Shown: positions 41,439-44,396 of the stretch, in pieces | Position numbering within the stretch: position 1 is the stretch's first letter | How the letters are laid out: every line of letters begins with the position of its first letter | DNA from: Pirellulales bacterium | Lineage (GTDB): Bacteria > Planctomycetota > Planctomycetia > Pirellulales > PALSA-1355 | Reading direction: 5' to 3' | Assembly: GCA_963733035.1 (NCBI GenBank) | Contig: CAVTBU010000007.1 | Location: 352,001 to 416,000 of the forward strand | DNA length: 64,000 bases | Position numbers and translations under genes: made by a program | Notes under the pieces: model-generated | What the model was told of the DNA's origin: nothing | Seen by the model: only the letters and a program-made list of their open reading frames with translations | Database searches by the model: none

Positions 41439-41524
41439 CGGCGCGGCACAAAGCTGAATTGACGCCAGGATTCGGTCGCGAGTACAGTGAGGAGGTTGAA
41501 TTCTTCGGTTTGGACCGATTGTCC

Positions 41525-41911
41525 ATGCATTGCGCCACACGCCCACGTCTGACCACGCTCATGGTATTGGCCGCCTATTTGGCCGCCCATACCCTTGGTG
41601 CGCTCTTGCACGAGCGGTTGCACGTTCATGCCGCCGGTGATGTCTGTTGTCATGCTCATGACCACAATCATGGGCACGCGTATGAGACCGAAGCCTCGAC
41701 CCCCGAAGGCAACCTGGCCTCGAAGGGAGCACTGCACGATCACGATTGTGTTGTCTGTCGAGTCACGGGTCAGCCGGTCGTTCCAGCCGTTGCGGCTGAC
41801 TTCGACATGGTCGCGGACGTTCGTCCCGACGCCCTCCCCTGCCCTGCCGCCGCGCCCCGTTCGCTCGCGGTGCGGATCGCTCAATCGCGGGCCCCTCCCC
41901 TCGCCGTCTAA
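41525..41911 (+). CDS. DUF2946-like His/Cys-rich leader protein ending in RAPP
   Basis: N-terminal hydrophobic helix, HVH..CCHAHDHNHGH, HDHDCVVC, C-terminal SRAPPLAV*. Confidence 0.75.
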   Translation: MHCATRPRLTTLMVLAAYLAAHTLGALLHERLHVHAAGDVCCHAHDHNHGHAYETEASTPEGNLASKGALHDHDCVVCRVTGQPVVPAVAADFDMVADVRPDALPCPAAAPRSLAVRIAQSRAPPLAV

Positions 41912-41996
41912 CGGCGTTTGATTGGTCACTCCGCCGGTGCTGCGCGCTTTGAGATTGCGCACCGTCGGCAACCTTTGACTAGGGAGGTACCAGGCT

Positions 41997-44396
41997 ATGG
42001 TAACCGTCCGCAAGGCGTTCAGCTATGTAGGGGCACGTCAAGTGGTGGCGATGTTTCACATCGTTGCCTCCTGGTTGGCGAGCTGGCGGGCTCGCGGAGG
42101 GCAGGCCCTACCGCAGTCGGAGCGGAGCGTGCCCGCCGGCGGCGCGTCGCCTGCCAGATTCCCATCTTCTGGCGATCTGTCCTCGAAGCAACCTCGAAGG
42201 TTCCATTCAGCTATTCGAGCTCAAGCGAACGCATCGCTGGCCCATGAGATTCAGTACGGCGAGATCGATGCCCATTCACACTCACGAGCTCACACGGCCG
42301 TTGAGGCCCTGGCCCAAAGGCTGGCTCGAGCTGTCGATCCCGATCCTGCACTTCGAGGATCCGATTTTGTTTTCTCCTCATGCCTTGGCGGGCGTGACGA
42401 GACGCGGTTGATAGGGCTGGCCTTTCAGAACCGCGGTCCACATCCAAGAGAGCAATTTGCGAGCGATGCCGACGGCGGCCGCTTTCTTGCCGGCGGAACG
42501 GCTCATCTTCAGCCACATCTTCTTGATACCGGGTTCGCAGCGGATGGCCGTCCAGGCGGCCTGCTGCAACACCCAACGCAAGTCGCGGGGTCCGGTCTTG
42601 GCGATGTGCCCTTCTCGTTGTTTGCCGCCGCTGGCGAAGACGCGCGGATGCAGTCCCGCATAGCAGGCGATCGCCTTGCGATAGGTGAAGCGACGGAAGT
42701 CGCCGACTTCGGCCAGGACTGTGGCGCTCACAATCAGGCCGACACCCGGGAAGGTTTGCAGCAGCGCGGCCGTGTCGCGGAATCGCTCGCTGGCGAGGAG
42801 GCGCCGCAACTCCATTTCGGCTTGGGCGATCTGCCGTTCGACGAGGGTCAACTGGTCGACGCACTTCCAAAGGATGGCCACATGTCGCTCGGACAGCTTT
42901 GTCTCGAAGGCCTTCAGGTAGCGAATCAAGCCATCACTCTGCAACCGCGCCGGCCCCGGACGGTTGTTGGCGTTCATGATGCTTTTGACCTGGTGCAGCA
43001 CACGAGCATGCAATCGCGAGAGCTGGTTGCGATGTCGCGTCTGGTCCTTGAGGATTTGTACTTCCAGGGGGGGTGCGTAGGCCAGCGGCAAGCGGCCGGC
43101 GGCCAGCAACTCGGCGACGTTTTGGGCGTCTTCCCGGTCGGTCTTCAGCCGTCGGCCGGCCAACGCCCGGGCGGCCGTGGCATCAGCCAAGACCAGCTTT
43201 TCGACGATCGGTTCCAGCAGGTCCCACAGCCAGCGGTAGAAGCCCACCGCCTCAATCGCGACGACTTGCGGCCGTGGCAGTGCGGCGAAGAACTCGGCAA
43301 TCTGCGCCCGACACTTACAAGCCAGTTTACGAAACGAGATTTCCCCACAACACGGACAGTAAACGCAAACGGTCAACGTGTCCTTGTGCAAATCGATGCC
43401 GACGCACCAATGGTGCGTGAGAGTTCCCATCCTCATAATCAGCCTCGCCATGTAGGGGTTTGGAATCAGCACCCAACGCGACGGCAGGATAACACCCGCC
43501 GCCGACCCCTACATGGTTTCACATTGGTTGAACTATTGGTCGTGATTGCCGTGATCGGCATCTTGGTGGGGCTGCTGTTGCCCGCGGTCCAGGCTGCCCG
43601 TGAAAGTGCGCGGCGGTCGCAGTGCCAAAACAACCTCCGCCAAATCGGCGTGGCAATGCAAAACGCGCACGGAGCCCGGGGTTCCTTTCCACCGGGATTT
43701 ATATCGCGGGCTCCGAACAAGAACGATGATGGCCTGGGGCCCGGCTGGGGTTGGGGCGCGCATTTGATGCCGTACATCGAAGAGGCAAATCTGCAAATCG
43801 ATCTGGCGCGCGAGATCATGGATCCCGTGCACGACCAGGTGCGCCAGACTCGCGTGGCCACCTATCTTTGCCCCTCGGATCCGGATCCGCCGCAAACGTT
43901 CTCGGTGGCGGATGACAGTGGCACCGAACTGACAAAAGTGGCTTTTGCCAATTATGTGGGTGTCGGCGGTACGTTCGAAGTCACGGAGTTTCCCGACACT
44001 GGCACGGGTGTCCTGTTTCGCAACCGGCGGATTCGCATCGCCGAGATCACGGACGGCACCTCCAGGACGCTAATGGTGGGCGAACGCAGCAGCCGTCGCT
44101 CGCCACAAACCACCTGGGTGGGAGCCGTCACCGGTTCGGCGATTCCACCGGTCAACCCGACGTACGATACCGAGGGGCCACCGGTGCTGGTGCTCACCAA
44201 CACCGGCGAGACCGAAGACGACCGCGTGCCGAACAATCTGCTTGACCACGTCGAGGACTCCAACAGCGAACATCCCGATGGCGTGAACTTCCTGCTCTGC
44301 GATGGATCGGTGCGAATCATCAACAACCAGATTGATCCACGCGTCTGGGCGGCACTGGGAACCCGGGCCGGCGGCGAGGAACTCGGCGAGTATTGA
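41997..44396 (+). CDS. DUF1559 prepilin-type protein (H-X9-DG), natively 299 aa, interrupted in frame by an IS1111-type element
   Basis: AGGGAGGT RBS; removing 42022-43521 gives [69 protein letters not shown]. Confidence 0.92.
42034..42377 (-). ncRNA. Putative bridge/seekRNA region downstream of the IS1111 transposase (exact ends unknown)
   Basis: Two parallel modules UGAGCUCG(U/A)-guide-UGG; guides GAGUGUGAA (42283-75, target-like) and AUAGCUGAA (42214-06, equal to donor junction). Confidence 0.7.
42378..43436 (-). CDS. IS110 family DEDD transposase/recombinase
   Basis: VGIDLHK, IEA, KTDREDA, PGVG, YAGLHP...SGGK...[19 protein letters not shown] before 43436. Confidence 0.95.

Follow-up and report, generated by a model that had tools for sequence, protein, structure and literature searches.

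An IS1111-family element with a putative guide RNA resides in the prepilin cleavage motif of DUF1559 genes and remains open in the host reading frame

Within a 64,000-nucleotide (nt) stretch of the genome of a Pirellulales bacterium (GenBank assembly GCA_963733035.1, contig CAVTBU010000007.1, positions 352,001 to 416,000; hereafter the window, numbered from its first base), we identified a 1500-base pair (bp) insertion sequence (IS) of the IS1111 family, a group within IS110, at positions 42022-43521. The element interrupts a DUF1559/N_methyl gene inside its Gly/Ala|Phe-Thr-Leu-Val-Glu motif. The left junction of the element (41997-42033) reads ATG GTA ACC GTC CGC AAG GCG TTC A|GCTATGTAGGGG..., and its right junction (43506-43539) reads ...CCCCTACATGGTTTCA|CATTGGTTGAACTATTGG or, as far as 43532 only, CCCCTACATGGTTTCA|CATTGGTTGAA. 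The minus-strand open reading frame (ORF) at 42378-43451 matches PF01548 (E 3.1e-10) and PF02371 (E 1.8e-25), and the ORF 3' of the element matches N_methyl PF07963 (E 1.8e-7) and DUF1559 PF07596 (E 2.5e-49, profile positions 1-267 of 268). In silico removal of 42022-43521 restores the uninterrupted prepilin-type N-terminus of the host gene, and the right end of the element, read in the host frame, gives ...RRRPLHG-F-T and so re-encodes His-Gly-Phe. The junction reads, the Pfam matches and the deletion together confirm the original prediction, made from the window by itself, that an element sits inside a prepilin cleavage motif which its own end rebuilds. The host gene has the features of a type IV prepilin-like gene, namely a short basic leader, Gly or Ala at -1, Phe at +1, Glu at +5 and a hydrophobic helix, and Peptidase_A24 genes are present at two loci of the same genome. 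Furthermore, all 1500 bp are open in the host frame, with zero stops, resulting in a single ORF of 799 amino acids. The features of the locus are as follows:

41997-42021, plus strand: 5' part of the interrupted DUF1559 gene, comprising the start codon, the leader MVTVRKA, TTC for Phe(+1) and base one of the Thr codon
41997-44396, plus strand: composite ORF of 799 amino acids, comprising the host leader, 500 element-encoded codons and the mature part of DUF1559
42022-43521, minus strand: IS1111-family insertion sequence of 1500 bp, with its transposase antisense to the host gene
42022-42033, no strand assigned: transposase-distal end, consisting of the 3-nt extension GCT and the subterminal inverted repeat ATGTAGGGG (7+3 extension rule as given in the sections of PMC11187229 cited here)
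42378-43451, minus strand: gene for a DEDD (RuvC-like) transposase, 357 amino acids from the ATG at 43451, with zero TTA, CTA or TCA codons
43506-43521, no strand assigned: transposase-proximal end, formed by the inverted repeat CCCCTACAT together with a 7-nt extension (GGTTTCA) that encodes Gly-Phe anew, plus the first Thr base
43522-44396, plus strand: rest of the DUF1559 gene up to its stop codon

Besides this full copy, the genome carries one 75-bp derivative, located at the G-F|T-L-V-E motif of another N_methyl gene. Three genomes of the same genus lacked a DNA-level ortholog of the DUF1559 gene in the window and returned N-terminal motif matches only, and an uninterrupted allele could therefore not be demonstrated. 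One short, low-depth metagenome contig (from four of twelve DNA runs, with small shares) spans the right junction in the same context; neither an empty site nor a circle junction was found among the short, low-depth contigs from these four runs.

Membership of the IS1111 family is reflected in both the ends and the transposase. In transposase orientation, the ends read TGAAACC|ATGTAGGGG ... CCCCTACAT|AGC, corresponding to extensions of 7 nt and 3 nt flanking the subterminal repeats. Such extensions, a long non-coding region 3' of the transposase gene and a GL-P----S(t)G motif are listed as hallmarks of IS1111 in the cited sections of PMC11187229; here, 356 nt of non-coding DNA lie downstream of the transposase gene versus approximately 70 nt upstream, and a motif of the GL-P----S(t)G type was found in the C-terminal domain of the translated ORF. 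The subterminal inverted repeats are perfect over 9 bp, inside the 7-17 bp range given in the relevant section of PMC11208160 and below the 11-13 bp given in that of PMC11187229. According to the sections of the latter (Siddiquee et al. 2024) cited here, IS1111 elements produce no true target duplication, and four bases of the 7-nt extension duplicate the target. Such a four-base repeat is seen in our elements, with left flanks ending in TTCA or TTTA and the element ending in TTCA. Depending on the start codon chosen, the transposase comprises 345-361 amino acids (published IS1111 range, 330-350). Its C-terminal domain matches the solved transposases of ISCro4 (E 3.3e-11) and IS621 (E 3.6e-10), the structures being 8wt6 and 9t56, and the protein is no more than 33% identical to plasmid-borne IS110-family genes.

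Comparison of the extension with the potential targets in the genome revealed a close correspondence. We found 21 F-[TS]-L..ELLVV motifs, two of which are themselves element-derived junctions, with Gly at -1 in 17 and Ala in four; GGT is the codon used most often at -1 (11 of 21), and TTC encodes Phe in 14 motifs, TTT in seven. Since GGT and TTC are the commonest codons at these positions, GGTTTCA represents the commonest left half of a target (predicted target sequence, GGTTTCACGCTCGTC). Left junctions vary in the way host codons do (GGT, GGA, GGC, GCG, GCC or GCA, followed by TTT or TTC), and the right junction is constant. With the target's left half copied in the extension, the Gly|Phe site and a complete target are both formed anew at the right junction. 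An alternative placement of the crossover, with a 'TT' core and the T or C of the left junction belonging to the element, was rejected, given that the right junction is nearly always TTCA and left junctions are host-like. A crossover to the right of the Phe codon is favoured from these junction sequences, with wobble pairing keeping both models possible. The left flanks of three copies (L044, L045 and L109) read ..(L)HGF with a degenerate CTACATGGTTT and look like older right-end scars; here the element seems to have re-entered a site left by a previous scar, which would be expected if the target is regenerated at the right junction.

Placement at this motif was examined across relatives through a sample unbiased with respect to the target, in which an alignment of nine transposases (A1) was scanned against genome contigs. 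This identified 58 loci, of which five lack a recognisable right end (L048, L067 and the approximately 30%-identical L087-L089), six lie at a contig edge and 47 are assessable. Forty-three of the 47 are located at the same codon, 42 of them continuing directly into T-L-[VI]-E and one (L073) occupying the same site with a 1-nt insertion in its end. The remaining four (L035, L046, L078 and L085) are sister elements in another N-terminal motif, RRRW(S)F|(R/Q)(L/F)(R/S)..., and none of the 47 lies elsewhere; in every one the transposase is antisense to the host gene. Searches for the right end gave the same picture. The exact 16-mer was matched 42 times in 27 of the 401 genomes of the order (a reversed-pattern control gave zero matches), and all 41 matches with a right flank continue into T-L-[VI]-E. 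A DNA search of the 401 genomes returned matches in 31, and every locus possessing a right end encodes RPLHG-F-TL[VI]ELL. The boundaries of the element were fixed by three copies within one genome (L043-L045), because they stop being alike exactly at GCTATG... and ...GGTTTCA. Placement at the prepilin motif is thus far beyond chance. Copies at unrelated sites, set beforehand as the outcome that would speak against such targeting, did not appear among the 47 loci and 41 right ends, which lie at [GA]-F|T-L-[VI]-E in 43 and 41 cases, respectively. Also, the end-encoded H-G-F proved to be conserved, with PLHGF in the elements of the Gly-Phe-Thr (GFT) type and H-G-F retained through GGG in an Omnitrophota relative. 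The further proposal that a conserved family motif serves as a multi-copy landing site is borne out by placement in relatives and has to be scaled down for the genome of the window, which offers 21 such motifs rather than hundreds.

Carriers include Lacipirellulaceae, Bythopirellula polymerisocia Pla144 (L038), further Pirellulales, Gemmataceae, Phycisphaerae, and metagenome-assembled genomes (MAGs) of Kuenenia and Omnitrophota. Contigs holding the element together with DUF1559 genes were also found binned to Gemmatimonadales, Hyphomicrobiaceae, Chromatiaceae or 'beta proteobacterium' (L036, L037, L039, L041, L050, L058 and L062); these are mostly short and probably mis-binned, and the 1.72-Mb contig that carries L058 may be mislabelled. 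The sister lineage (L035, L046, L078 and L085; also L005 and L008) ends on the right in CATAGTTTCA or CATAGTTTCC, and its hosts are small membrane-anchored proteins with the motif RRRW(S)F|(R/Q)(L/F)(R/S)TL... In the genome of the window, the pattern RRRW..F-[RQ]-L-R-T-L gave eight matches; because only approximately four of these are convincing, the multi-copy nature of the sister motif there is left unestablished.

The non-coding region 3' of the transposase aligns across lineages, and we folded it with RNAalifold from 22 sequences (window positions 42172-42361, minus strand). The resulting structure consists of a closing stem and two internal loops, with 46 pairs. Pairing is realised in 96.2% of alignment cells versus 32-46% (maximum 46.3%) when the partners are slid against each other, 18 pairs are changed on both sides, and none of 500 shuffles reaches the observed covariation score. 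A scan of 41500-44000 against Rfam 15 returned no family at E<=1. The parts of the structure are:

42172-42361, minus strand: putative seekRNA/bridge-RNA core, with closing stem and two internal loops
42317-42326, minus strand: 5' strand of the target loop, AGCCAGCCUU, followed by U; its sense is that of the host top strand to the left of the cut (codon -1 plus TTT)
42275-42284, minus strand: 3' strand of the target loop, UGAGUGUGAA, complementary to host TTCACACTCA, the Phe-Thr-Leu codons
42245-42256, minus strand: 5' strand of the donor loop, UACUGAAUCUCA, whose last bases resemble the right-end TTTCA imperfectly
42206-42215, minus strand: 3' strand of the donor loop, AAUAGCUGAA, complementary to TTCA|GCTAT of the predicted circle junction

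The two target-loop strands spell GGTTT(Y)A and TTCACNCTC, the 3' strand being complementary to TTCACNCTC (Phe-Thr-Leu codons), and they overlap on TTYA; the predicted circle junction reads CATGGTTTCA|GCTATG. Comparison of the 5' strand with the flank of individual copies gave ACCGGTTTTA against ACCGGTTTCA in L076, ACGGTTTT in L038 and GCATTT in L040, and the copy in the window occupies a near-cognate site (guide GCC-TTT, flank GCG-TTC). In sister lineages both target strands are altered to suit their own targets, with CTGGTT and TTCCAGTTC in L046 and GTCGTTT and TTCAGATTG in L035, and the donor loop of L046 carries a change fitting its TCC|GC junction. The order of the strands is that of IS1111 seekRNAs, in which the match to the top strand lies 5' of an overlapping match to the bottom strand, and the reverse of that of IS621. 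These correspondences support the identification of the region as a seekRNA or bridge RNA and, through a two-loop RNA whose strands match target and circle junction, lend support to the earlier suggestion that insertion is RNA-guided.

Codons of the host frame line up with those of the antisense transposase gene, and we asked how this frame fares in 24 intact GFT-type elements with a transposase ORF of at least 359 codons. Nineteen of the 24 have a length divisible by three and no host-frame stop between the junctions; at 90% identity the 24 copies form 18 clusters, 15 of which hold an in-frame, stop-free copy. Stops in the non-coding region, summed over the 24 elements, number seven in the host frame; the two remaining frames have 68 and 80. 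The codons TTA, CTA and TCA, whose complements are stops, are missing from all 24 transposase ORFs against an expected 3.1-4.5 each, the chance of zero being 0.011-0.047 per ORF under the codon usage of the genome of the window. Over the 58 loci, GFT-type and contig-edge ORFs of at least 350 codons likewise have zero, except for L080 (three) and L050 (four); for L050, a GC content at third codon positions (GC3) of 0.50 suggests that the wrong ORF was picked. Zero was also observed in L083 (GC3 0.52) and L038 (GC3 0.66). Among the controls, sister lineages contain seven and four such codons and the distant relatives L087 and L088 contain four and nine; the sister elements use them normally and carry host-frame stops. 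Copies in phase are preceded by short basic leaders with start codons, e.g. MKPFSLKTGF and MMRGSARTSGF, and form composite ORFs of 797-891 amino acids; the in-phase copy of L038 measures 1470 bp and its composite ORF 827 amino acids. A deletion derivative of 1053 bp that has lost part of the transposase gene (L081) nonetheless has a length divisible by three and no stop in the host frame, and its composite ORF spans approximately 700 codons.

Shorter remnants of the element were also identified. The 42 exact right ends correspond to 12 full-length copies, one partial copy, four contig edges and 25 sites with no transposase within 1.5 kb. Short derivatives with a recognisable left junction measure 75, 72, 78, 78, 117, 45 and 42 bp, with a further one of 81 bp (L017) whose boundary is less certain (raw script value, 82). 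All eight of these 42-117-bp forms preserve the host frame and contain no stop in it, and they fit the description of recombinase-less, in-frame intragenic MITEs (transposable elements of the miniature inverted-repeat type), being unrelated to Rickettsia palindromic elements (RPEs). In the 75-bp form, the left end is fused at an internal repeat copy, one that overlaps the start codon of the transposase. Elsewhere the right end by itself now serves as a leader, e.g. MAMRQRPLHG|F in L117, and also in L092.

Two of these remnants lie in unusual contexts. The gene with the 75-bp derivative in the genome of the window (L002, 1381-1600; C8:385365-385584) has no in-frame ATG, GTG or TTG 5' of the junction; there is an ATG (MSNRNQFF..) in a different frame, preceding five consecutive T, which could reflect a frameshift, a sequencing error or a pseudogene. 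In a second genome (G367), six DUF1559-type genes (L100 and L122-L126) share a near-identical block of approximately 85 bp directly 5' of F-T-L-V-E, composed of AATCCGC/AATCCGA heptamer repeats, CCCTCGA repeats and then the right end of the element, with an inverted copy of the heptamer further upstream. This block may be a non-autonomous element using the same end.

The explanation that in our view best fits these observations, to which we assign a probability of roughly 0.7, is that an RNA-guided IS1111 element inserts at prepilin codons and is translationally transparent, with read-through under selection. The target loop would be programmed for approximately 14 bp, (N)GGT-TTY-A|CN-CTC, corresponding to the Gly-Phe-Thr-Leu codons at the prepilin-peptidase site. 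Insertion always splits the Thr codon after its first base, placing the recombinase antisense to its host, and the right junction again encodes Gly-Phe-Thr-Leu-Val-Glu, leaving an intact target. The recombinase gene appears to have been purged of codons complementary to stops, with the structured non-coding region kept open too. Because of its in-frame length, lack of stops and codon avoidance, the host ORF runs from its own start through approximately 490 element codons into the mature part, and ribosomes would read through the element. From this pattern we infer that the open frame is kept by selection for translational read-through. Prepilin peptidase might then cut at the element-borne Gly|Phe, discarding the old leader together with approximately 490 element residues and freeing the native mature protein. 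This last step, removal of the element at the protein level to yield an unaltered mature protein, we put forward tentatively and hold to be somewhat less probable than its contrary. The host gene may still be readable, and the earlier idea that its mature protein stays intact is strengthened by the stop-free, in-frame build of the element. Decay of copies would subsequently rewrite DUF1559 leaders, leaving RPLHG|F scars.

Several points weigh against this explanation. We know of no leader of approximately 500 residues that is processed by prepilin peptidase. The case for selection at the level of the host is weakened because its genome has only 21 target motifs and the paralogs may be dispensable. 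Five of the 24 intact copies are out of phase (L033 and L034, of 1547 bp, L040, L045 and L047), as is L083 relative to its junction; the five keep long open frames and look like recent frameshifts, L045 being one base longer than L043 and L044. Expected codon counts were derived from the codon usage of one genome and from ORFs of at least 600 codons only, and the controls are few, comprising two sister lineages and three distant relatives. The closed frame of dead copies is not independent evidence, because indels break the transposase and host frames together. Finally, recombination needs alone could explain the conservation of GGTTTCA, since the donor loop reads the same end, and four target-duplicating bases in the extension are normal for the family according to the cited part of PMC11187229.

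Among the alternatives, we consider it unlikely that read-through only keeps ribosomes on the host mRNA, avoiding Rho-dependent polarity downstream or a harmful truncated product, with the composite protein never being processed. Such a role would explain the open frame and the in-phase junctions equally well, and it agrees with the nature of the element-encoded polypeptide, for which AlphaFold2, given 16 sequences, predicts no fold over 499 residues (mean predicted local distance difference test score [pLDDT] 32.4, predicted template modelling score [pTM] 0.15). These residues look like a spacer in the predicted model rather than a protein in its own right. Hydropathy revealed no clear membrane segment, the maximum 19-residue Kyte-Doolittle mean being 0.98-1.78 and exceeding 1.6 in L042 only; this is compatible with a cytoplasmic leader and proves nothing. 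However, avoidance of polarity does not account for the conservation of a Gly codon in the extension, retained in L083 as the synonymous GGG. It also leaves unexplained why right-end scars such as MAMRQRPLHG|F are kept as working leaders, or why sister elements, whose target motif has no peptidase site, contain stops.

It is considerably less probable that we are dealing with an ordinary gene-killing insertion, for which the motif is simply a multi-copy landing site and H-G-F and the open frame are side effects of constraints on the ends and of a GC-rich codon usage. GC-rich genes tend to have an open antisense frame where it is codon-aligned, the four-base target duplication within the 7-nt extension is normal for IS1111, and several copies are broken or out of frame, all of which would fit. 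Against this stand the complete lack of TTA, CTA and TCA in the 24 ORFs, when sister and distant relatives of similar GC content have between four and nine and L083 has zero even at its GC3 of 0.52, and the scarcity of host-frame stops in the non-coding region (seven, against 68 and 80 in the other frames). Lengths that are multiples of three in 19 of 24 intact and eight of eight short copies also argue against it, as does the excess of stop-free, in-phase copies over IS1111 controls, found on a small control set.

An internal start was another possibility raised by the original prediction, which pointed to an ATG at 43410 and a GTG at 43413; the mature protein would then be made from these codons, the element providing a basic leader and perhaps a promoter, and the long frame would be irrelevant. 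Both codons are indeed in the host frame, an ATG or GTG lies 34-51 codons 5' of the junction in 11 of 13 elements, and the tail of the element is basic. Their conservation nevertheless says nothing alone, because they are the reverse complements of conserved transposase His codons (HHW, DLHK). Also, a scan of 41800-43700 found no sigma-70-like promoter, and an internal start accounts for neither the approximately 450 other stop-free codons nor the lengths divisible by three, making this a poor candidate. Least credible of all is that the long antisense frame is the element's own gene for a functional protein. The frame is conserved and open across lineages (54% mean column identity), yet neither a start nor a stop codon belonging to it lies within the element, its product has no Pfam match and the low-confidence fold reported above, and the transposase and RNA that overlap the frame account for its conservation.

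Two further features of the element may relate to expression of the transposase:

43431-43521, minus strand: 5' leader hairpin of the transposase mRNA, in which the subterminal repeat pairs with an internal copy (43450-43458, plus strand) and the AUG is buried (-43.1 kcal/mol, z -3.92)
42036-42041, minus strand: TTGAC(G/A), conserved near the element end in 13 of 13 aligned elements; possible -35 box of a circle-junction promoter

By hiding the transposase AUG, the hairpin could block translation of transcripts entering from outside or from the circle junction. The TTGAC(G/A) box is invariant and lies 14-16 nt from the transposase-distal end; as a candidate -35 box it would point towards the transposase gene solely when the element is circular, and no convincing -10 box was found beside it in the elements. 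The transposase frame is open upstream of its own ATG as far as the element end (43452-43521, minus strand), and likewise in the other intact elements.

Inteins and self-splicing introns are selfish elements that spare the host gene through removal from the gene product; unlike these, removal here would employ a host peptidase site copied by the element rather than self-splicing. The IS1111 elements with seekRNAs (ISEc11, ISPa11, ISKpn4 and ISPst6), as characterised in the sections of Siddiquee et al. 2024 (PMC11187229) cited here, share with ours a DEDD transposase, the repeats, 7- and 3-nt extensions, the lack of a true target duplication and a downstream guide RNA. As far as those sections describe them, they differ from our elements, in which the target is a coding motif of a paralog family, all seven extension bases copy the commonest target codons, and the insertion is in frame and stop-free on the host strand. 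As with the bridge RNA of IS621 in the cited part of Durrant et al. 2024 (PMC11208160), target and donor loops are present whose strands pair with each DNA strand and share a core; compared with that account, the RNA here lies at the opposite end of the element, the order of guide strands is reversed, and the shared core is approximately 4 nt (TTYA) rather than a dinucleotide. IS4321/IS5075, which target the inverted repeats of Tn21, and the attC- and repetitive extragenic palindrome (REP)-targeting members of IS1111 also exploit conserved, multi-copy DNA as a safe and abundant target. In the accounts of those members drawn on here the targets are non-coding repeats, whereas our elements occupy the most conserved coding stretch of a gene family with the frame preserved. 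The 42-117-bp derivatives resemble RPEs and intragenic MITEs, as covered in part by PMC10969869, in being in frame within coding genes, as whose parts such mobile repeats are translated; unlike RPEs, which that part describes as short, without a recombinase and found in unrelated genes, here a full autonomous element of approximately 1.5 kb is in frame at one codon and re-creates a protease site.

Our literature search on IS110 or IS1111 in connection with DUF1559, prepilin, Planctomycetes or in-frame coding insertion found no description of such a system among the papers listed, the Planctomycetes part being judged by titles and abstracts. In-frame short repeats in Rickettsia (the cited part of PMC10969869) and IS1111 elements at repeated non-coding DNA, in the partial accounts used above, were already known. 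What is new is the coding-motif target, the regeneration of a processing site and, for a full-length element, a selection signature favouring an open frame on the host strand.

Taken together, these findings describe a whole clade of RNA-guided recombinases that would be programmed for DNA encoding a protein-processing motif, in contrast to the usual non-coding sites. The layout of the guide may help in reprogramming recombinases of the IS1111 type, and Bythopirellula polymerisocia Pla144, as a cultured carrier, makes the idea directly testable. The recurrent RPLHG|F leader of DUF1559 proteins could be explained as transposon scars. The selection signature on the host strand points to a transposon that limits its own damage by being translatable and by borrowing the site of a host protease; were removal at the protein level to hold true, an insertion would have no phenotype, and its regenerated target site could be used again.

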